DNA of 50,113 bases from Nitrosopumilales archaeon (GTDB lineage: Archaea > Thermoproteota > Nitrososphaeria > Nitrososphaerales > Nitrososphaeraceae): assembly GCA_044507735.1 (NCBI GenBank), contig JBIQJB010000015.1:1-50113 (forward strand), read 5' to 3'. Position numbers and translations under genes: made by a program. The number at the start of each line of letters is the position of its first letter. Positions within the stretch are counted from its first letter, which is position 1. Shown here piece after piece: positions 1 through 18,271 of the stretch. The notes beneath the pieces are model-generated. The model was not told the origin of the DNA. It did no database searches and saw nothing but the letters and a program-made list of their open reading frames with translations.

Positions 1-87
1 TTTTCCTCAAGCTCTGGTTTTGTATGGGCTGCTGGTTGCTTTTCCTCAAGCTCTGGTTTTGTATGGGCTGCTGGTTGCTTTTCCTCA
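1..87. repeat. 39-bp tandem repeat, two full copies plus a partial copy (coding, EEKQPAAHTKPEL)
   Basis: TTTTCCTCAAGCTCTGGTTTTGTATGGGCTGCTGGTTGC at 1-39 and 40-78, partial from 79. Confidence 0.95.
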
Positions 88-242
88 GGCACGCTCGGCA
101 CACTTGGCACCTTGCGCGGAGGCATGGTCCGGCGACCAGGGGTTGAAAAAGGCTCTGGAATTGATTCAGGTGTGATTGCCGGTCTGATCGGTCCGTTGTC
201 TGCCTTCAGAGTCCTGTCTACTATTCTCTTGAAGTAGCTCAT
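1..242 (-). CDS. Pro/Glu-rich low-complexity eCIS-associated protein with 13-aa tandem repeats (N-terminal part, runs off window)
   Basis: Not in ORF track. ATG at 242 overlaps the upstream TGA (ATGA). Reads MSYFKRIVDRTLKADNGPIRPAITPESIPEPFSTPGRRTMPPRKVPSVPSVP(EEKQPAAHTKPEL)x2 EE, open to position 1. Confidence 0.8.
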   Translation of the reverse strand, partial: MSYFKRIVDRTLKADNGPIRPAITPESIPEPFSTPGRRTMPPRKVPSVPSVPEEKQPAAHTKPELEEKQPAAHTKPELEE

Positions 243-1069
243 AGGCTTCCCCCCGCTAGCGTTGCGTTCACAAGCTCGACGTACCTTTTCCGCTTTGAGG
301 TCGGGAGTGAGAGAATCTCATTCTCGCTCCAGTGGTAGTGAAACGCCAACCAGTGTACTTCCCGCTCTAGCTGGTGTCCACGTACGCCAAGCTCGCGTAG
401 GACAAACTCTTCCACGGGAAGTGCGGCCTGAAACGAATGGCCGCACTCGGGGCACAAAAGTCTGAGGTTAACATCAGAAAGCGGATCTATCTCTTCAAGC
501 CTTGAACCGATCGCTTCAAGCAGTGCTTCGGGTATTCTTTCTGGAAGCGCAGGTTCAGATCGAACAACACATGCCCTTGCGAGCTCTTGAGCCAGCACAT
601 CTGACCTTGCTGCCTTTGCGACTATGGCATCCTGATCCTCTGCTGTAAGTGGTCTTATCCTAAGGCGGAACCCAGCCGCCTCAAGCCCATAGTCAACCTC
701 GGGAATTGGATGCTCCGCACTCATTATTGTGTCGGCAGAGAGGTCAAGCGACATATCGGCTCCGCAGCTTGGGCAGCTTGTGGTGCACGATATGAGATCG
801 CCAATGATCAGCTTTCTTGCGCTCAAAAGGAGACATGCTCTGTCGCCGAGACTCAGCTTTTTCAGAACGACGGATGTATGCGCGCCTTCAAAAGTGGCTA
901 TCCTTTCCAAAAGTGATACAACCTTTGAGTGCAATGGAGTACTAGCTGGATGTTCCATCAGCAGCTGCTCGTCGTGCCCTGTCATCCTCCGGATAGCGGC
1001 TTTTCTTATCCACTGGCCTTTTGCGTTTCCAGGGACTCCGCGAGGAACTGTAGCCAGGCCTTGCTCCAT
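239..1069 (-). CDS. eCIS baseplate hub assembly chaperone (T4 gp26-like) with C-terminal DUF6760-like motif
   Basis: Two CxxC motifs (CPSC, CPEC), IRRMTGHDE, LSLGDRACLL, and C-terminal EVHWLAFHYHWSENEILSLPTSKRKRY; directly follows the tube gene. Confidence 0.8.
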   Translation of the reverse strand: MEQGLATVPRGVPGNAKGQWIRKAAIRRMTGHDEQLLMEHPASTPLHSKVVSLLERIATFEGAHTSVVLKKLSLGDRACLLLSARKLIIGDLISCTTSCPSCGADMSLDLSADTIMSAEHPIPEVDYGLEAAGFRLRIRPLTAEDQDAIVAKAARSDVLAQELARACVVRSEPALPERIPEALLEAIGSRLEEIDPLSDVNLRLLCPECGHSFQAALPVEEFVLRELGVRGHQLEREVHWLAFHYHWSENEILSLPTSKRKRYVELVNATLAGGSL

Positions 1070-1087: not shown

Positions 1088-1600
1088 TTAAAGGACCGGC
1101 TCTGTCGGCTCCGTCACGCTTTCGTCTCTTTCCCATCCTTCGTTCTCTAGCTTGATTGTCTGGATCGCTACGGCCTCTCCGTTTGAATCCATCTCTGGAA
1201 GAGCTTGGTATTCTGACACCCAGCAGCGGTACACCTTGTATGCGATTGCCACCTGACCGGCCTCATTGAGGACCTCAATCAGTATGTCTTTTCTAAAGTC
1301 CTTGAGCGACACTTCTGCTCCGACATTGTTGCCAAAGTGCCATATCTTATTAGCCCACTTTTCAAACTCCAAGTCATGTGTCACTCCCCTACTCAGCGTT
1401 ATTGCGTCGTATGAAGTCCTACCAGGCGACTTGCGGTTGGTGCTCGGATCTCCACCCTCTCTATGCTCTATCGGTTTTGTCGTGCGCTTGAGCGCGGTCA
1501 TCTTGCTCAGGCCGGCGACGTATCTGCCATCCCACTTGATGCGGAACTTGAAATTCTTGTATGGGTCGAAGCGGTGAGTGTTTACTTCAAATTGCGCCAT
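1088..1600 (-). CDS. Phage tail tube protein (T4 gp19 family, Afp1/5-like)
   Basis: HRFDPYKNFKFRIKW, HREGGD, RKSPGRTSYDAITLSRG, EYQALPEMD, IKLENEGWERD. Start moved to ATG 1600 (MAQF), preceded by GGAGGTG. Confidence 0.95.
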   Translation of the reverse strand: MAQFEVNTHRFDPYKNFKFRIKWDGRYVAGLSKMTALKRTTKPIEHREGGDPSTNRKSPGRTSYDAITLSRGVTHDLEFEKWANKIWHFGNNVGAEVSLKDFRKDILIEVLNEAGQVAIAYKVYRCWVSEYQALPEMDSNGEAVAIQTIKLENEGWERDESVTEPTEPVL

Positions 1601-1601
1601 T

Positions 1602-3167
1602 TTACTGCACCTCCGCCTGTCCAGCAAGCTGCTGGATCTTTATGAAGACAAACTCGGCAGGTTTGAGCGGCGCAAAGCCAACCACGATGTTGACAATGCC
1701 CCTGTCAATGTCATACTGGGTTGTAGTCTCTTTATCACATTTTACAAGGTATGCCTCCTTGGGTGTGCTTCCCTGGAAAGCCCCCTTGCGGAACAGGTCG
1801 TGCATGAATGCGCCTATGCTAAGCCTTAGCTGCGCCCACAGAGGTTCGTCGTTTGGCTCAAAGACTGCCCATTTTGTGTTACGGTAAAGCGTCTCTTCGA
1901 TATACAGCGCAGTCCTTCTTACTGGCAGATACTTCCACTGGTTTGCCAGTCTGTCTGCGCCCTTCATGGTGCGAGCCCCCCACACAATTCTTCCAGCAGG
2001 TGGCATTATGCGCAGGCAGTTGACTCCCTGAGGGTTGAGCTCTCCATTTTCCTCGTCTGTGAGCCTCACTGCCAGGTCAGGTACGCCAGTAAGGACAGCG
2101 TCTATCCCCGCAGGTGCTTTCCACACTCCGCGCTGGGCATCTGTCTTTGCCATAATTCCGGCGATAGCTCCGCTGGGTGGAAAAGTCCTCAGACGGTTTT
2201 CATCAAGTGGATCCGGGGCCCTGATGCGCGGGAAGTATATCACTGCGTTTTCGCTCCTTGAAAGCGGAAGTGCATCTATGCCTATCGCGCCATCTATTGG
2301 ATGATCCTTGGAGGTCCAGTTGCTAGGTGGGTCGACTATAAGCATGGCTCGCTTTTTCTTGCAGTAATCTACGGCCTCTGAATAGACAGTGCTGTACAAG
2401 CCGGGCGTGTCAGTGCCGTCCTTATTTGGTGATGGTATGCAAAGCAGGTTGAAAATGTCTGTATTATCAAGCGCGTAAATTCCCTTCTTGCCATCTGGGT
2501 CGCCTTTGAGATCGTCATCATCTAGGCCACTTCCATTATCTCCCTTGGTTGCAGCGATGTCAAAGTCGAGCTCTCCGGATGGCCTGTCTGTGAGTGTGTT
2601 TGTGCTGACGCGTATCAACCTTGACCCTTCTGCAAGCACCCTGTTCACGAACCTAGGGTGATCTTCTTCGTAGGAGACATTGAGGAAAGTTTCAAGCTCC
2701 ACATAGTCTTTCTTGGGGTCTCCAGTGCTTGCAACCTTCTCCTTCACTCTGACATTGAACAGCTTGTCGCTGCCTTCAGCATCCTCGTCGATCTCGTTGT
2801 CCGTGGTCACCCGCAAGTTGTTGGCCCAGTCTCCTTCATTTTCAGCCTCAAATGTTATGCCGGTTTCAGAGTTGTTTTCAAACTTGGCTTTCTTAGCGTC
2901 GGGATGAACTACGCGTACAATGACTGCATCGGCCCCCCCGTTCAAAAAGTACTGATATACTGAATAGCTCACGGTGCTCTCCTTCCAGAGCCCGCCAAAG
3001 ATTCTTTGAAACTCTCCAAAGTTGTGTATGACTACAGGATCGTTAACCGGCCCCTTGAGCGCTCGCCCTATGAATGCCGTTACAGACGTGCTAACACCAA
3101 CTATGGTCTTGACAGGGTTATCAAGCTCCTCAATGTATACGCCAGGATATGTCGGGGTAATTGGCAT
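1602..3167 (-). CDS. Contractile tail sheath protein (Afp2/3/4-like)
   Basis: N-terminal PTYPGVYIEE, TAFIGRALKGP, RGVWKAPAG, VWGART, W.VFEPN, C-terminal GFAPLKPAEFVFIKIQQ. Start moved to ATG 3167, preceded by GAGGTGA. Confidence 0.97.
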   Translation of the reverse strand: MPITPTYPGVYIEELDNPVKTIVGVSTSVTAFIGRALKGPVNDPVVIHNFGEFQRIFGGLWKESTVSYSVYQYFLNGGADAVIVRVVHPDAKKAKFENNSETGITFEAENEGDWANNLRVTTDNEIDEDAEGSDKLFNVRVKEKVASTGDPKKDYVELETFLNVSYEEDHPRFVNRVLAEGSRLIRVSTNTLTDRPSGELDFDIAATKGDNGSGLDDDDLKGDPDGKKGIYALDNTDIFNLLCIPSPNKDGTDTPGLYSTVYSEAVDYCKKKRAMLIVDPPSNWTSKDHPIDGAIGIDALPLSRSENAVIYFPRIRAPDPLDENRLRTFPPSGAIAGIMAKTDAQRGVWKAPAGIDAVLTGVPDLAVRLTDEENGELNPQGVNCLRIMPPAGRIVWGARTMKGADRLANQWKYLPVRRTALYIEETLYRNTKWAVFEPNDEPLWAQLRLSIGAFMHDLFRKGAFQGSTPKEAYLVKCDKETTTQYDIDRGIVNIVVGFAPLKPAEFVFIKIQQLAGQAEVQ

Positions 3168-3679: not shown

Positions 3680-6600
3680 TTAGTGGATATTTGCATGATC
3701 CTGTACGAACTTGCCCGGTTCGTACTGATAAACTGCGAACAGAGTTGTATTGGGTCCTAGTCCGGGAACTGGTTTTGGTGCGTTGCCATCCAAAATACTT
3801 CCCTCCCTTATCAGAAAGCTTGCGACGTAAATGTTGGTTTGTGCTCCGGTTTCTTTTAGCTGTATAACAACACCGCCAGCCTCCGATGCCGGGCCCGTCG
3901 GTGGCTTTGTTGTGATCAGCACTTGTACACTTCCTATAACACTATCCATCGGGAGGTTGGGGTCAGTCACCGTCACGACAACTGTATCGCCGCCTGCTTT
4001 GTAATCCGATCTGTCAAATTCGATCACAGGTTCAACCTTTTCTTTTATGGGCTCGCCTGACTGCGACGCTTGCTCCTGTGCCGGAATGGCCCACCAGCGC
4101 AGCAGAACAGTTGCCTTTTGGTCTATCGCAAATCTTGTTGTCGCTCTAGCGCTAATTTCAGCCGTTGCCATCCTTGTAATTTCTGTTGCTCTTAGTGCCA
4201 TTGAAGAGGCCTCAAGTAGTGAAGATGGGAGACTGACGGTCGGCATGTCACGGGCGGTCGCAACTGAAGTCCCGGCGGCGCCGGGTGCGGAGCTGACAGT
4301 AGAGGGGCTTGAAGGCGAGCTATCTGCGGGACTGGATGCGCTGCCTGTCGTTGTTCTACTGACCACCCAAAGGTGTACCTTGAAAGTCTCCGGGTTTATT
4401 TCAACAGGCTTGAAGTGAACGCCCGATCGAGCTGCAAAAACATAGTCCTCCGTGTACTTTACCTCGTCATCTTTGTCCGGTGTGACAAGCCCTAGCAATA
4501 CAGCCGGTGGCATCTTGAGCCCGGTCAGGTAGTGCTTAAACGGCCCATACACAAGCGGAAAGTTACCCTGGCCGGCAGGGATTACGAGCTTTAGCAGACC
4601 GGTGTTGGCAGACCTTCCATGTTCCAATATCCCTACGCTAAAGTATATTGGAGCAAGGTTTGTCGGCTTGCCATCAAATAATAGCAATTCAGCCTTGATC
4701 TGCTGCCGGGTCGGAGCTGAAGAAAGAGTGTACCTTGTTGTCGCTATTCCCTGGCTACTTATTTCCGGCATAGCCGGTGAAACTGTCCCGCCTGCAACAA
4801 CAGTAAATTTCACTTTGAATTTTTTGTTTGGGTTAGTTGGTGGCTTGCTTCCCACCGCAATGCCTACAGAGAGATCTACCGTCTCTCCCGCATGTTCCTC
4901 CGCTCCGTCGCCTGCCACATAGTAGAACCAGATAGGCAAGGTCGCGCCAAAGTATATTGGAGACACCTTTGCGCCGTCGCATTCTACAATCTCTGCCTTG
5001 ACCTGCTGTTCTACAACGTCGTCTGCAAGAGTCCAGAAGCATTCTGCAATGCCCTCACTATTGGTCTCTACTTCAAGCGACGAGCCTGTCATTCCACCAG
5101 CAGATAGTGTTCCAAGCGAAGATGGTTTGACTATTGTAAAACGCACCTTTGCGCTGCCAACCGGCGTCTTGCTTATCGGTGTCCTGCCCATTGTTACGGC
5201 CACTCTGAGAGGTTCTGCAAGTCTATTGTTTGGCAGGGCGTTCTGGCCGTCCCCACCCGCATAATGGATGAGTATAAGGTCTGCAAGAGATGTGAAAAAG
5301 CTCCTTGCGTCGGACTTTACGCTAAACCTTTCATCTTTGTATTCGACTACAGCAAGTGGCGCATAGTGGTGAGCGATGCCTGCTGGCAATAGCGCCTGCG
5401 GCGCGTCTGTCAAACTGTTTCCGATCCGAGGCCATTCAATGCTCTCCTCGCTGTTAGCCCGGGCCGGCACGAGCCAGTAGTCGCCTGTGCGGTAGTTGCC
5501 ATCGCTCAGTCTTATTTCGACTCCGTCTTCAAGCTCTATATAGTCGGTAGAGTTTGCCGGCTTTAGTACGCCGTCGGAATCCCATCTCCGGGCCTTTGGG
5601 TTCTCTGCAAAGTTGGCGCTAGTTATTGGCAACCCGATGACCTTGTCAGGATAGTACTCGATAGTATTCTCCTTGACTTCCTTTATCTTCACTAGCGTTC
5701 CCGAGAGGTGAAGCCTTTCATGCAGGTCGTCAGTAATTTCGATCCATGTGTCCTGCTTGAAATCAAGGTTATCATCTCTGCCTCTACTTTGGATCTCGAT
5801 TTTGTTTTCCAAGTCGCGGATCTTGGTTACAGGGCTGACAACGATTCCGTTGTCACGAGACCACTTGAACGTCGACTCGGCAAATGGGCCACCTTTGTGC
5901 ACCTCCACCCTGTAAAGATGGTTTTCAAGCCCCCTGTAGCCCGCCGTTTCATACAGCTTGCACATATCTGTCTGCTCTTTGGTGGGTTTTGGCCGTGCCT
6001 GCATTCTACCAGGGTTGGACACGCCAAGGTCGTCCACTGCACTCCACGCATCGCACTTGTCCACGTTGGAGGAGTCAAGCGGGAGCAGCCTAACCTGCCA
6101 TGCTGTCCTTGTGCGCGTTGCAGTATCGACGCCGCCGAGCGCTTTTTCCCTCATGTAATGGTCTTCAAGGTGGGTCACGTGCTGATCCCAAGTGTCGAGA
6201 TACGCAAGGTAGAAACCATTGGCCGAAGGAATTGATGGGTTTTCAACCTGATAGTATATGAGCGTCTTTTCATCTGACTTCTCGGCCACAAGCTCTATCA
6301 CAGAACCATTGAACTTTAGCGTGGCCTTGCCTTCACTTTCGACAAGCTCGATTTCAGCAGTGTCCGAGGTCTCGGTGTTGGTTATTGTAATTTTCTTTAC
6401 GGTCTTTTCAACAGTGACTGCCCCTGCCATTGCCGGGAACATGGCTAGGACAAAACCTGCTATGGCTTTCTTGATCGGATCTGATCCCGCCGACTCCCAC
6501 TCAAATATCTGGAACCGGATCTGCCTGGCAAGTATGTCTGGCTGCCTTGTGGATTCAATGTTGCTCTCGTTTTCGCAAAGGATTCCGTCGACATAATAGT

Positions 6601-7093
6601 CGCCCTTTCCGATCATGTATCCTCTGCTCCATACGTCATCTCCAGCATGCGCGAATTCATAGACAGGCTTGCCGTCGATAGCGAGGACTACTGGTTTTCC
6701 GGCGTCCCGTGTTATAGTCGCGCTGTGTGAGCCGTCTGCCGCTAGAATGGTAAGAGTCTTGCCGTCGCCGCTTTTGGCCACCGGAGTGTTCTCTTGAATC
6801 CACAAAAGGCCAAAGCTATCGCGCAGAAATTCCACAAGTGCTTTTACTTCTGCAGAGTCTGGGTAATCATTGTCCCATTTGAACGAGAAATTTTCCGATA
6901 TCTTGAAGCCATCGTCTTTGTCAAGCGTGCCGCTCTTGCCGAGGATGTCGCGCAGAAACGTCCGCTCATGGTGGGAATTGATGTCATTTTGCTCGTTCCA
7001 GTCTGCATCCACCTGCACCCTTCCCTGCTGCATGTTTACACTGTTGTAGTGCTTTTTCTTGTCAAAAGTTGACCTTGTAAAATCACCCTTCAT
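3680..7093 (-). CDS. DUF6519-domain eCIS tail-fibre-like protein with Ig-like C-terminal domains
   Basis: MKGDFTRSTFD..HY...MQQGRVQVDADWNEQ, YYVDGILCEN, REKALGGVDTATR, GYRGLENHLYRVEVH, FKWSRDNG, YRTGDYWLVPAR, HHYAPLA. Two GGDGQ/AGDGA-initiated Ig-like repeats follow. Confidence 0.92.
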   Translation of the reverse strand: MKGDFTRSTFDKKKHYNSVNMQQGRVQVDADWNEQNDINSHHERTFLRDILGKSGTLDKDDGFKISENFSFKWDNDYPDSAEVKALVEFLRDSFGLLWIQENTPVAKSGDGKTLTILAADGSHSATITRDAGKPVVLAIDGKPVYEFAHAGDDVWSRGYMIGKGDYYVDGILCENESNIESTRQPDILARQIRFQIFEWESAGSDPIKKAIAGFVLAMFPAMAGAVTVEKTVKKITITNTETSDTAEIELVESEGKATLKFNGSVIELVAEKSDEKTLIYYQVENPSIPSANGFYLAYLDTWDQHVTHLEDHYMREKALGGVDTATRTRTAWQVRLLPLDSSNVDKCDAWSAVDDLGVSNPGRMQARPKPTKEQTDMCKLYETAGYRGLENHLYRVEVHKGGPFAESTFKWSRDNGIVVSPVTKIRDLENKIEIQSRGRDDNLDFKQDTWIEITDDLHERLHLSGTLVKIKEVKENTIEYYPDKVIGLPITSANFAENPKARRWDSDGVLKPANSTDYIELEDGVEIRLSDGNYRTGDYWLVPARANSEESIEWPRIGNSLTDAPQALLPAGIAHHYAPLAVVEYKDERFSVKSDARSFFTSLADLILIHYAGGDGQNALPNNRLAEPLRVAVTMGRTPISKTPVGSAKVRFTIVKPSSLGTLSAGGMTGSSLEVETNSEGIAECFWTLADDVVEQQVKAEIVECDGAKVSPIYFGATLPIWFYYVAGDGAEEHAGETVDLSVGIAVGSKPPTNPNKKFKVKFTVVAGGTVSPAMPEISSQGIATTRYTLSSAPTRQQIKAELLLFDGKPTNLAPIYFSVGILEHGRSANTGLLKLVIPAGQGNFPLVYGPFKHYLTGLKMPPAVLLGLVTPDKDDEVKYTEDYVFAARSGVHFKPVEINPETFKVHLWVVSRTTTGSASSPADSSPSSPSTVSSAPGAAGTSVATARDMPTVSLPSSLLEASSMALRATEITRMATAEISARATTRFAIDQKATVLLRWWAIPAQEQASQSGEPIKEKVEPVIEFDRSDYKAGGDTVVVTVTDPNLPMDSVIGSVQVLITTKPPTGPASEAGGVVIQLKETGAQTNIYVASFLIREGSILDGNAPKPVPGLGPNTTLFAVYQYEPGKFVQDHANIH

Positions 7094-7094
7094 A

Positions 7095-15981: not shown

Positions 15982-16854
15982 TTATGACACGCCGGCAACA
16001 AGCCTGCGACTAAGCTTCCTCTTCTCTTTTATCAGAAGGTCGATCTGGCTGTGCAGAGAGTTCTTGTGCTGCATCAATATTTCCCGCATTAGCCAGTCGT
16101 CTTCGTTTTGGCTTATCAGGGCGCCAATGTTGTTCAGTGCGATCCTTAGTGTCACTATCATCTTATCGAAAACTTTACGCTTGTGCTCAAGCCTGCTGGC
16201 CGTAGACTTGTCGTCAGTGTCGTCCAGGGCTTCAGCCTTGTACTGGCTAAGGATGCCCCTGGCCTTGCGCAACGAAAGGTGCCGTTGAATAATTAGAGAC
16301 GCCAGCTCTGACTGTCGCGACTGATCTTTTATCGAACACAGCTCTTCTGCCAAGCTTGCACTTAGGGATTGATTCGTGATAGAGCTGATCACGTCAGGAG
16401 GAAGATTGAGCAAGTTGATCCTTCTTGTGATATAGCTTGGGCTCTTGCCTATCCTTCGTGCAAGCTCAGAGACACCGCCCCAACCAAAATCCGCCACGTA
16501 GACTTTGAAGGCATTGGCCTCCTCAACTACAGTAAGCGTCTGTCTCTGTATGTTTTCCACAAGCGAATATTCAAAGGCCCTCTTGTCGTCAAGCTCCACT
16601 ATATGGCAGGGGATCTTTCTCCATCGGAGCAGCTCGCAAGCCATGCATCTCCTGTTGCCAGCCACGATCTCAAAATAGTCATTCTTTGGTCTTACAACGA
16701 TTGGCTGCAAGAGTCCGTTTTCCCGGATTGAATCTACTAGCTCCCTCACGTCTGACCTGGGGCGCAGACATTTCTCAGAATATTTGATCTTGGATAGCAT
16801 CACATCCCCAATTATTCCAGGGATTGAAGAGGCAAGGCCAGCAGAATATGGCAT
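15982..16854 (-). CDS. parB: ParB/RepB/Spo0J family protein
   Basis: ELVDSIRENGLLQPIVVRP, EIVAGNRR (CTPase motif), LVENIQR, HTH ELARRIGKSPSYITRRINLLNLP. Start may be up to 18 codons later. Confidence 0.9.
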   Translation of the reverse strand: MPYSAGLASSIPGIIGDVMLSKIKYSEKCLRPRSDVRELVDSIRENGLLQPIVVRPKNDYFEIVAGNRRCMACELLRWRKIPCHIVELDDKRAFEYSLVENIQRQTLTVVEEANAFKVYVADFGWGGVSELARRIGKSPSYITRRINLLNLPPDVISSITNQSLSASLAEELCSIKDQSRQSELASLIIQRHLSLRKARGILSQYKAEALDDTDDKSTASRLEHKRKVFDKMIVTLRIALNNIGALISQNEDDWLMREILMQHKNSLHSQIDLLIKEKRKLSRRLVAGVS

Positions 16855-16953
16855 GGAAAGTCCATATCGTTGTTATTATTATGTTTTGTTACCTTCTCAG
16901 AGGACAATAGCGCTCCCTACCCATATTATGGAACAATAATCGTACAATTTGTG

Positions 16954-17006
16954 TTATATTGTGATCAATATAATCAAATTATCATATCATATTATCAAAT
17001 ATTGTG
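16954..17006. promoter_or_regulatory. AT-rich inverted repeat plus short direct repeats upstream of parB/eCIS
   Basis: TTATATTG-tgat-CAATATAA at 16954-16973; ATCA(A/T)AT at 16973, 16981, 16986, 16994; ATATTGTG at 16956 and 16999. Confidence 0.55.
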
Positions 17007-17197
17007 CAACATCTATAATGAAAGATGATAGAAATATCACCCATTTTCAACTGCGGGTGGTAAGCTCTGGACGAAGCTACAAGACTATTCTTTGCGTACA
17101 CTGCCAAACCAAACCTTGGAAATATGATTACAAGCCTTCAGAATGTGGCGTCTATTTGCGCTTGTCAATTCACATCATGACTAGGAGAAAAAAATTT

Positions 17198-18271
17198 TCA
17201 TGGTCTTGCCTCAAAGACCAAGTTGAATGGAGTCTGCGTTGCGCGCCGGAACCTGGAAAAGCCCGCTCCTGTCACTATCTCTTTAATCCTCTGCTCTCCG
17301 GCCTGCGCCCCTAATGCAGGTCCGTCCTCGTTCAAGGATGCCGGAACACATACTATGGTAGAAGCACAGTATGACAACCTGCCCATAGGGGTCAAGTTAT
17401 CTTCCACCTTATCATTGGCGAAGGGCTCTACGAGCATCAATGAGCCATCTTTCTTCTTCAAGGATTGCAGCACATGCTTGGCGGCCCCAGAGGGATTGCC
17501 CATGTCGTGGAAGCAATCGAAGAATGTGACCAAGTCATAGTCATCCCCAGGATAATCGGTCGATCGAGCTACTTCAAAAGTCACATTTTTCAAGCCTTCC
17601 CTTTCTGCCATGTTCCTGGCGCTTTCGATTGATGGTTCATGAAAGTCAAATCCCACTATTTGTGAGTTGGGGTACGCTTTTGCCATTAGAATTGTAGATG
17701 CACCATGACCACACCCGACATCTGCCACCTTTGCACCGCCCTTCTTGAGCCGGGCCTCTATGCCATCCAATGAAGGAATCCAACTGGTTGTAAGATTCGC
17801 GACATAACCGGGCTTGAAAAACTTCTCCGTGCCTTGGAAAAGGTAGTGGTGATGGTCCCCCCATCCAAGCCCCTTTCCGGTTCTGAACGCGTTAATGAAT
17901 TTCTCTTCGTCTTTGAATAACCCGGTTACGAGCTGGTATGCGCCCATGGTATACGCTGGGCTGTTTTCGTCAGTAAGGGCAAGTGCGTGCTCTGCTGGCA
18001 GCACGTATTTTCCTGTAACAGGATCGTATTCGACGATACCTCCAGCAGCTTCGGCAGCGAGCCATTCTCTTACAACTCTAGGATGCGTGCCAGTCTTTTT
18101 TGCCAACTCTTCAGGCGTCAGCTCACCCGCTCCTGCCATTGCTTTGAACAATCCAAGCCTTTCACCTGCGAATGTGAGCAGTGCGCCCAATGCTGCTCCC
18201 CATTCGTTTAACGACCTTTCGACAAATTTTTGCAGTTTTGCCTCATCAACTACCATTATTGTTATGCGCAC
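17198..18271 (-). CDS. Class I SAM-dependent methyltransferase with N-terminal winged HTH (Rv2258c-like)
   Basis: GERLGLFKAM, REWLAAEAAGG, VADVGCGHG, FDCFHDMGNP, LGAQAGE, TPFNLVFEARP. Start may be ATG 18256. Confidence 0.92.
   Translation of the reverse strand: MRITIMVVDEAKLQKFVERSLNEWGAALGALLTFAGERLGLFKAMAGAGELTPEELAKKTGTHPRVVREWLAAEAAGGIVEYDPVTGKYVLPAEHALALTDENSPAYTMGAYQLVTGLFKDEEKFINAFRTGKGLGWGDHHHYLFQGTEKFFKPGYVANLTTSWIPSLDGIEARLKKGGAKVADVGCGHGASTILMAKAYPNSQIVGFDFHEPSIESARNMAEREGLKNVTFEVARSTDYPGDDYDLVTFFDCFHDMGNPSGAAKHVLQSLKKKDGSLMLVEPFANDKVEDNLTPMGRLSYCASTIVCVPASLNEDGPALGAQAGEQRIKEIVTGAGFSRFRRATQTPFNLVFEARP

Follow-up and report, generated by a model that had tools for sequence, protein, structure and literature searches.

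Probable old copies of a MITE-like mobile element as inserted domains in the baseplate of an archaeal contractile injection system

Contig JBIQJB010000015.1 of a Nitrosopumilales archaeon (assembly GCA_044507735.1; Nitrososphaeraceae in GTDB) begins with a gene cluster for a contractile injection system of the extracellular kind (eCIS). We analysed positions 1 to 50,113 of this contig, the whole of which stretch is called the window here; the contig is C53 of a 2.3-Mb genome. The cluster runs on the minus strand from position 15898 down to the contig start, and Pfam recognizes, grouped within it, sheath, tube, gp25, baseplate J, a PAAR-like tip and further baseplate proteins, as befits an eCIS. 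A first-pass annotation, made from the letters alone, proposed that one domain of about 85 residues had been inserted five times in three structural proteins of the cluster and that it was an archaeal mobile module that might serve in envelope binding, particle anchoring or bundling. We describe relatives of this module in Methanoperedenaceae that have the DNA ends of a transposon, and we argue that the five segments are probably descended from such an element. The genes of the cluster, with the Pfam E-values or other evidence on which their names rest, are as follows.

15566-15898, minus strand: PAAR-like gene (PAAR_motif, 1.8e-5, below the Pfam cutoff)
15205-15564, minus strand: gp25-like gene (GPW_gp25, 1.4e-14)
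12484-15201, minus strand: baseplate J-like protein P0004, 905 aa, host of one module copy (Baseplate_J, 2.6e-8)
9695-12499, minus strand: second baseplate J-like protein P0003, 934 aa (Baseplate_J, 1.5e-12)
7095-9698, minus strand: gpI-like tail protein P0002, 867 aa, host of two module copies (aligned orthologues)
3680-7093, minus strand: DUF6519 protein P0001, 1137 aa, host of two module copies (DUF6519, 9.1e-58)
between P0001 and the sheath in gene order, minus strand: open reading frame (ORF) of 133 aa
1602-3281, minus strand: sheath (Phage_sheath_1/1C)
1088-1627, minus strand: tube (Phage_T4_gp19)
239-1069, minus strand: T4_baseplate/DUF6760 protein (T4_baseplate)

P0004 is 60% identical to a protein named by its source as Ca. 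Nitrososphaera evergladensis. P0002 gave nothing against Pfam at E 0.01; Methanoperedens ORFs that match Tail_P2_I correspond to it in gene position, after two Baseplate_J genes. Genome-wide searches with hidden Markov models (HMMs) of the module found no copy in P0003. The five copies in the other three proteins are listed below, with their E-values to the HMM of the module and then to an HMM built from 36 copies of Methanoperedens-type loci.

13900-14145, minus strand: module copy in baseplate J protein P0004, aa 353-434 (5.7e-16; 1.8e-11)
7935-8207, minus strand: module copy a in P0002, aa 498-588 (6e-15; 1.4e-8)
7584-7856, minus strand: module copy b in P0002, aa 615-705 (9.4e-11; 4e-5)
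6629-6889, minus strand: module copy a in P0001, aa 69-155 (5.6e-9; 0.008)
6245-6520, minus strand: module copy b in P0001, degenerate, modelled as aa 192-283 (0.019; 0.55)

Translation of the minus strand reproduces all five segments where the first-pass annotation had placed them, DUF6519 copy b having been drawn there as 6254-6508 (aa 196-280). Pairwise identity among the five is 15-36%. When each segment was omitted in turn from the HMM and then searched alone (Z=1), four of them were recovered at 2.9e-14, 3.8e-12, 4.4e-16 and 5.6e-14, and DUF6519 copy b at 2.4e-5. The five-segment HMM, run against 21,743 six-frame fragments of the 2.3-Mb genome, returned those five and one further copy, on contig C33 (E 1.4e-6), the next match being at E 0.1. 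By their sequences, four segments are clearly homologous and DUF6519 copy b is degenerate. The copies in the window share only short DNA matches of chance size and have no DNA similarity to each other. None of the five segments reaches a Pfam cutoff (best 15.8 bits, against 24.4 needed), and no Rfam family was found between positions 3000 and 16000 of the window.

The sixth copy (L001:2248-2514, minus strand) lies outside the eCIS cluster, within an ORF (L001:1885-2751) for a 288-aa protein. It is the one of the six most like the Methanoperedens elements (6.7e-17 to the HMM of 36 copies, the best of the six). Neither its host nor the neighbouring genes have a Pfam match at cutoff, and orthologues of the host were not found in 110 genomes of the family, where the matches are other modules or short proteins that match at the C-terminus alone.

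Structure prediction gave the fifth segment the same layout as the others that were modelled. AlphaFold, supplied with an alignment of 51 copies, predicts the baseplate J copy as a strand, a helix and six strands (predicted local distance difference test, pLDDT, 93.3; predicted template modelling score, pTM, 0.84). In a model of residues 1-331 of P0001, made from ten orthologues without the family alignment, both inserts come out as a strand, a helix and six strands in the same order; their blocks have pLDDT values of 71-92 (copy a) and 86-95 (copy b), and the rest of the model is poor (mean 65.9). The predictions are thus consistent with a shared fold for the baseplate J copy and DUF6519 copies a and b. 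A Foldseek search of the PDB returned nothing at E<=1e-3 (best match 0.16), and a VIA comparison with 48,161 representative chains gave nothing with Z>=5 (best Z 4.5, below the usual background). No known fold can be named for the predicted structure of the module, and a weak or missing match does not prove a new one.

Each of the five segments is a clean insertion when set against bacterial orthologues, whose flanks are 40-50% identical. The flanks in the baseplate J, tail and DUF6519 proteins align with bacterial orthologues that lack the segments, and the motif pairs that the first-pass annotation named as near-adjacent in bacteria (GF.I / G.YYVDG and SAT. / L.VGDVL) are indeed adjacent there, so that insertion into three different eCIS structural proteins holds. 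In an alignment of 16 baseplate J homologues the insert is in the same place in six (P0004, three proteins named Nitrososphaera, Thaumarchaeota or Thermoproteota, and two others) and absent in ten, among them proteins that their sources name as Longimicrobium and Chloroflexota; here the flanks are about 50% identical. Occupancy of the tail protein is more varied. Copy a is common to two other Nitrososphaerales loci (L064 and L065) and its site is empty in the Methanoperedens orthologue (L128) and in eight bacterial orthologues, whereas the site of copy b is occupied in L065 but vacant in L064, L128 and the eight bacterial proteins. The tail proteins of L064 and L065 hold a third copy, where the window protein has none, and a fourth site is used by a copy peculiar to the Methanoperedens orthologue, which makes four different insertion sites across lineages. 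Both DUF6519 inserts are common to L064 and L065 and absent in the Methanoperedens orthologue and six bacterial ones, and a Methanothrix baseplate J protein carries a copy at a different site from that of the Nitrososphaerales copy. Where the baseplate J insert is present it is 34-71% identical among ten orthologues, as against 57-82% for the rest of the protein; the insert therefore evolves faster than the core, with its length kept and, by prediction, its fold. A sequence search of the PDB matched P0004 to other baseplate J/gp6 chains only outside the insert and gave no match for P0002, so the insertion points cannot be placed on a solved baseplate.

A profile of the six copies shows that the family extends well beyond the window: searched against 1.84 billion representative proteins, it matches 1381 of them at E<=1e-3, of which 209 remain at the stricter E<=1e-10. 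The hosts are diverse. Among 77 of the 150 matches listed (those of up to 1000 aa, in rank order), Pfam identified Baseplate_J in seven, Pentapeptide_3 in five, TPR_2 in three, DUF6519, KAP_NTPase, GAF, RAMPs and Tail_P2_I in two each, Rep_fac_C in one, and others. Its occurrence in unrelated host proteins is explained no less well by a tolerated selfish insert than by a function dedicated to the baseplate. The number of hits per protein ranges from one to a dozen. Four proteins (P0127, P0129, P0126 and P0169) contain head-to-tail arrays of three to twelve copies, several of which begin at residue 78 of a Baseplate_J-type protein. Ten clusters that were looked up included two named 'hypothetical protein', one Ca. 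Methanoperedens sp. and one Bacillota metagenome-assembled genome (MAG).

In the order to which the window belongs, eight of 401 genomes have the module, and among 31 close relatives it occurs in one, the source genome itself. The copies in genomes G177 and G037 lie, in each, within one 7-8 kb stretch of large ORFs. Five Methanoperedens/Methanosarcinales genomes have 14, 24, 5, 1 and 2 matches, many of them in eCIS-like clusters, within Baseplate_J and Tail_P2_I proteins. The module profile was also run on 80 related eCIS loci, taken with their flanks from named genomes (4 archaeal, 76 bacterial), and matched four ORFs in three of the four archaeal loci (Methanoperedens, Methanothrix and Nitrososphaera, not the Methanotrichaceae locus) and none in the 76 bacterial loci. 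The word 'archaeal' in the first-pass annotation fits these loci but has to be qualified by a Baseplate_J protein named for a Bacillota MAG, which has tandem copies, and by a young copy on a contig binned as Anaerolineales. The latter was found with the exact 26-nt 5' end of the element, which occurs in 14 stretches of a species-genome collection: 10 from Methanoperedens/Methanoperedenaceae, 3 from Methanosarcinales MAGs and this one (L156). The Mnv1 and BLZ2 lineages of Methanoperedens are among the carriers. The contig has a G+C content of 0.438, like Methanoperedens loci, and the copy could reflect mis-binning or transfer. A search of IMG/VR viral contigs with the module alignment gave 15 pattern matches, none of which was confirmed, and the ESM Atlas returned no usable match to the stand-alone protein P0274.

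The Methanoperedenaceae relatives give the term 'mobile module' a more literal sense than the first-pass annotation had intended. We examined 36 distinct full copies from Methanoperedens-type loci (L022-L063). When the ends of the copies are aligned as DNA, the boundaries are sharp, and the length is 262 nt in 21 of the 36 and 259 nt in 10. The ends are 14-nt terminal inverted repeats: the 5' consensus is GTATTTGTTTAGCT and the reverse complement of the 3' end reads GTATATGTTTAGCT, with one mismatch. The two ends of a copy match on average at 9.6 of 14 positions, and at 11 or more in 17 copies, compared with 4.9 on average for shuffled ends, for which the highest value reached in 1000 shuffles was 5.8. 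An 8-bp target-site duplication, identical at 7 or more of 8 positions, flanks nine of the 36 copies; random re-pairing of flanks yielded a mean of 0.285 such copies and at most 3 in 2000 trials. Since 262 + 8 and 259 + 8 are both multiples of three (the former adding 270 nt, or 90 codons), insertion never shifts the frame of the host.

The inverted repeats also encode the start (Y-L-F-S) and end (L-N-I-Y) of the module. Codon choice there differs from that within the module: Leu is TTG in 21 of 32 terminal codons as against 4% of internal ones, Ser is AGC in 18 of 21 (12%), Ile is ATA in 27 of 30 (40%), Asn is AAC in 23 of 29 (36%) and Tyr is TAC in 19 of 31 (11%). The synonymous codons at the ends are thus held to the repeat, which means that the repeat is maintained at the level of DNA and not just by constraint on the protein. 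No frame but the coding one is open in every one of the 36 copies. On the reverse strand, one frame lacks stops in 13 of them (mean 1.1 stops), and the other four non-coding frames always contain stops.

Filled and empty sites can be compared directly in two 93%-identical orthologues from two Methanoperedens genomes, which differ by the presence or absence of the element at three sites, two of them exact and the third imprecise. At the first, the empty allele has a single CAAAAATT, which in the filled allele stands at either end of a 262-nt element; at the second, the empty allele has a single GCTGGAAC, and GCTGGAAC and GCGGGAAC flank a 259-nt element in the filled allele. Movement between genes is also evident. 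A Baseplate_J insert and the N-terminal domain of small two-helix membrane proteins are 84-85% identical as protein and 87% as DNA, the flanks are unrelated, and the similarity stops exactly at the ends of the module; by this comparison of sequences, the likeness is the result of recent movement between unrelated genes. The small Methanoperedens proteins (L045 and L049 in G409, L046 and L056 in G410) have the module right after the start codon and continue with two helices predicted to lie in the membrane and then a coiled-coil-like tail; their modules are 72-86% identical to each other and to the Baseplate_J insert. Elements also enter one another: among 148 match proteins there are 31 cases in which an N-terminal part is followed by a full copy, and in 18 of these the interrupted copy is taken up again by a C-terminal part, beginning where it broke off or a few positions away. 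Some nested junctions have a 3-residue duplication.

A DNA search with one copy gave 29 matches in two genomes, all coinciding with known open-frame protein matches; most lie inside long ORFs, and one or more stand alone, as does a 93-aa ORF situated between genes. In the most similar pairs of copies listed, those that are near-identical are alike at 96-100% of synonymous third positions and at 80-97% of residues, a contrast that gives a hint of diversifying change. In two large proteins with no Pfam match (1805 aa, L062:9425-14842; 1775 aa, L063:11980-17307), two module copies in each are 93-98% identical as DNA to their counterparts in the other genome and only 80-97% as protein, nearly all of the differences changing an amino acid.

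With their inverted repeats, 8-bp duplication, filled and empty sites, small size, many copies and lack of a transposase, the Methanoperedenaceae elements have the hallmarks of miniature transposable elements with inverted repeats (MITEs). Neither a pattern search of three fragmented Methanoperedens genomes (G409, G410 and G411) nor a scan of the loci analysed for distant repeats found an autonomous partner. The exact repeat matches compared in the three genomes are module copies; the remainder are mostly matches with one mismatch, in numbers like those of a reversed-pattern control. Repeat pairs more than 400 nt apart in the scanned loci are explained by neighbouring copies. A distant repeat pair in locus L028 was rejected as an autonomous element: it encloses an ordinary gene, and the copy there is a stand-alone 93-aa ORF.

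We believe that the five segments in the window are, with good probability, old and fixed copies of one mobile element that is MITE-like in Methanoperedenaceae. Each would have arrived by transposition, as judged from sequence comparison. We take the window copies to be old because their repeats and duplications have been lost and they have no DNA similarity to one another; they belong to the family by protein homology to repeat-bounded elements and lack MITE-type ends themselves. The young element, usually 262 nt, has no transposase of its own and consists of the 14-nt inverted repeats and one open frame for a domain of about 86 residues, flanked by an 8-bp duplication. Inserted in frame in a tolerant loop, it would be translated as an extra, independently folding domain and so persist, other insertions presumably being lost. 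In an eCIS lineage of Nitrososphaerales the element may have colonized the baseplate genes several times, some insertions being fixed and others lost or never spreading, such that five sites in three proteins remain. The DNA ends of these copies would then have decayed and the fold been kept. The domains would be exposed on the baseplate and tolerated there rather than required. Contractile baseplates are built of six-fold wedges; if each host protein occurs once per wedge, there would be about 5 domains per wedge and about 30 per particle.

Several observations weigh against this interpretation. The window copies have inverted repeats that match at 3-5 of 14 positions and duplications at 1-5 of 8 (5 of 14 and 2 of 8 for the baseplate J copy), which are not recognizable as such, and the C33 copy has no recognizable repeats or duplication either. 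When scored with the distant family, DUF6519 copy b does not reach significance (0.55), and the searches returned no autonomous partner. Copies are concentrated in eCIS baseplate genes (five of six in the source genome, four of four in G177, five of five in G037), and in G410 seven of 24 lie within a single 12-kb cluster of such genes. This could reflect the tolerance of large, loop-rich and dispensable structural proteins, local hopping, or real usefulness. The baseplate J insert is present in ten of ten orthologues with 0-2 gapped positions, and may therefore be useful and not just tolerated. The tandem arrays in the Bacillota-labelled Baseplate_J protein bear on the direction of origin, since a cellular or baseplate domain could have existed beforehand and been captured between repeats. 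Insertion in a tolerant loop also presupposes that the two ends of the domain are close together.

Capture of this kind is part of an alternative in which the module is an ordinary accessory domain for adhesion or decoration, spread by duplication or recombination and kept because it binds the S-layer, a target envelope or neighbouring particles, the Methanoperedens transposons being a side branch that captured it. The concentration of copies in the baseplate genes of three archaeal lineages and one Bacillota-labelled protein would be expected if this were so, as would the constant presence, near-constant length and faster evolution of the baseplate J insert, the retention of the fold after the DNA ends had decayed, and the hint of diversifying change in near-identical pairs. 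The module is, however, also found in cytoplasmic-type proteins of unrelated function with no common functional context, neither Foldseek nor VIA matched it to a known binding fold, and its occupancy varies between close orthologues, as predicted by insertion and loss; the clustering of copies may itself come from local transposon hopping. We regard an accessory domain of this origin as unlikely.

Two further explanations fare worse. Discrete insertions in conserved proteins might resemble inteins or introns and be cut out at the protein or RNA level, leaving mature baseplate proteins without the segments. RFC proteins are common hosts of inteins, and the wider family does include an RFC-type protein. 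Inteins start with Cys or Ser and end with His-Asn followed by Cys, Ser or Thr, and HINT splicing domains are larger than about 86 residues. The segments are of just that smaller size, their ends (Y-L-F-S-W and L-N-I-Y) are not intein motifs, no Pfam family, HINT included, matches them at E up to 1, and no Rfam family was found in the region searched. Conservation of the protein despite diverged DNA, together with a confidently predicted fold, points to selection on the translated product, and removal by splicing is very improbable. That the five segments resemble each other by chance or composition might be argued from their low pairwise identity and the weakness of DUF6519 copy b. The leave-one-out values of 1e-12 to 1e-16 refute this for the other four, the genome-wide search returns module copies alone, more than 1000 relatives exist elsewhere and the predicted fold is shared; we give chance practically no credence.

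Old insertions of a mobile element remain our preferred explanation, and a bolder form of it can be put forward tentatively, as something we would not yet expect to hold. The element might represent a class of transposon that survives by being translated, its self-folding body making in-frame insertion harmless. Such a class would be an active generator of multi-domain archaeal proteins, and contractile injection systems would have co-opted its copies, which would now be exposed modules of the baseplate that evolve fast and influence what the particle adheres to. If this is true, a translated domain would be a third route for selfish DNA in genes, beside RNA splicing (introns) and protein splicing (inteins).

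The window shows no spike (VgrG-like) gene, tape measure or ATPase, and the cluster runs off the start of the contig. The contig start (window 1-242) cuts the cluster, and its far end, with for example the ATPase or effectors, lies outside. Directly upstream of the PAAR-like gene, at 15982-18271 on the minus strand, are a winged-helix methyltransferase and a ParB-like protein (ParB_N and HTH_ParB), in place of the genes that clusters of this sort usually have (spike, LysM-type, tape measure). The cluster may have been rearranged or may be sited on an integrated element. The C-terminal part of P0001 (window 3680-4500) contains a long linker rich in Ser, Thr, Pro and Ala, followed by a further region without a family match.

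Domain insertion is a main route of protein evolution in which the DNA event is rarely visible, and this one family shows both ends of the process: the young copies look like transposons, and the old copies in the window look like ordinary domains in conserved parts of a machine. The 270-nt arithmetic, together with the double role of the repeats, which also code for the first strand and the last strand of the domain, suggests that residence within genes has moulded the element. Mobile inserts would account for some of the size and variety seen in the baseplate proteins of archaea, which is relevant to their comparison with bacterial ones and to engineering. For annotation, the module is a domain family in more than 1000 representative proteins with no Pfam entry and no solved relative, and gene callers and orthology methods will meet alleles of one gene with and without the insert.

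Immunoglobulin-like and other accessory decoration domains occur on phage tail and baseplate proteins. The module resembles them as a small accessory domain in several copies on structural proteins of a contractile machine, and differs in having no match among solved structures, in occurring also in non-structural proteins and in having relatives with transposon ends. Inteins and IStrons remove themselves by protein or RNA splicing. The element shares with inteins and IStrons, as these are summarily described, a selfish existence inside coding sequence that does not destroy the gene product; unlike them it has no splicing motifs and no Pfam or Rfam match, and instead of being spliced out it appears to stay as a tolerated, extra folded domain. 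ShiLan, an in-frame insertion in a phage methylase, follows the evolutionary pattern of a mobile element, conceals an HNH endonuclease and homes to one gene (PMC11855218). On that description, both evolve as mobile elements inserted in frame in genes, whereas the module element lacks a nuclease, has many target genes and is bounded by inverted repeats and duplications.

In the literature searched we found no description of the element or its domain, which could still be listed in the transposon figure and annotation tables of PMC13444090 or the MITE tables of PMC11602168. The former, a 2026 paper on extrachromosomal elements of Methanoperedens, describes eCIS-like loci and shared transposons, and its main text does not contain the element (PMC13444090); the main text of the latter, a survey of MITEs, does not mention Methanoperedens (PMC11602168). 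The element is like prokaryotic MITEs in its terminal inverted repeats, target-site duplications, small size, lack of a transposase, many copies per genome and insertion polymorphism. Prokaryotic MITEs are described in that survey as mainly intergenic (PMC11602168). By that description the element differs from them, since its frame is open in 36 of 36 copies, its DNA matches coincide with open-frame matches, and no cognate insertion sequence was found in the genomes and loci searched.

The nearest described case, in the part of the literature consulted, is that of the Rickettsia palindromic elements (RPEs), which are about 150 bp long, code for a short peptide that is conserved, and occur in Rickettsia alone (PMC10969869). 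As they are presented in that source, RPEs too are short pieces of mobile DNA without a transposase that lie in frame in unrelated genes and are translated with the host protein (PMC10969869). The differences, drawn from the description alone with no RPE sequence compared, are that the module element is usually 262 nt long, has 14-nt inverted repeats and an 8-bp duplication, and resides in archaeal hosts. Unlike RPEs as described there, it also encodes a whole predicted domain of 86 residues, which has outlived its DNA ends as a family of more than 1300 representative proteins.

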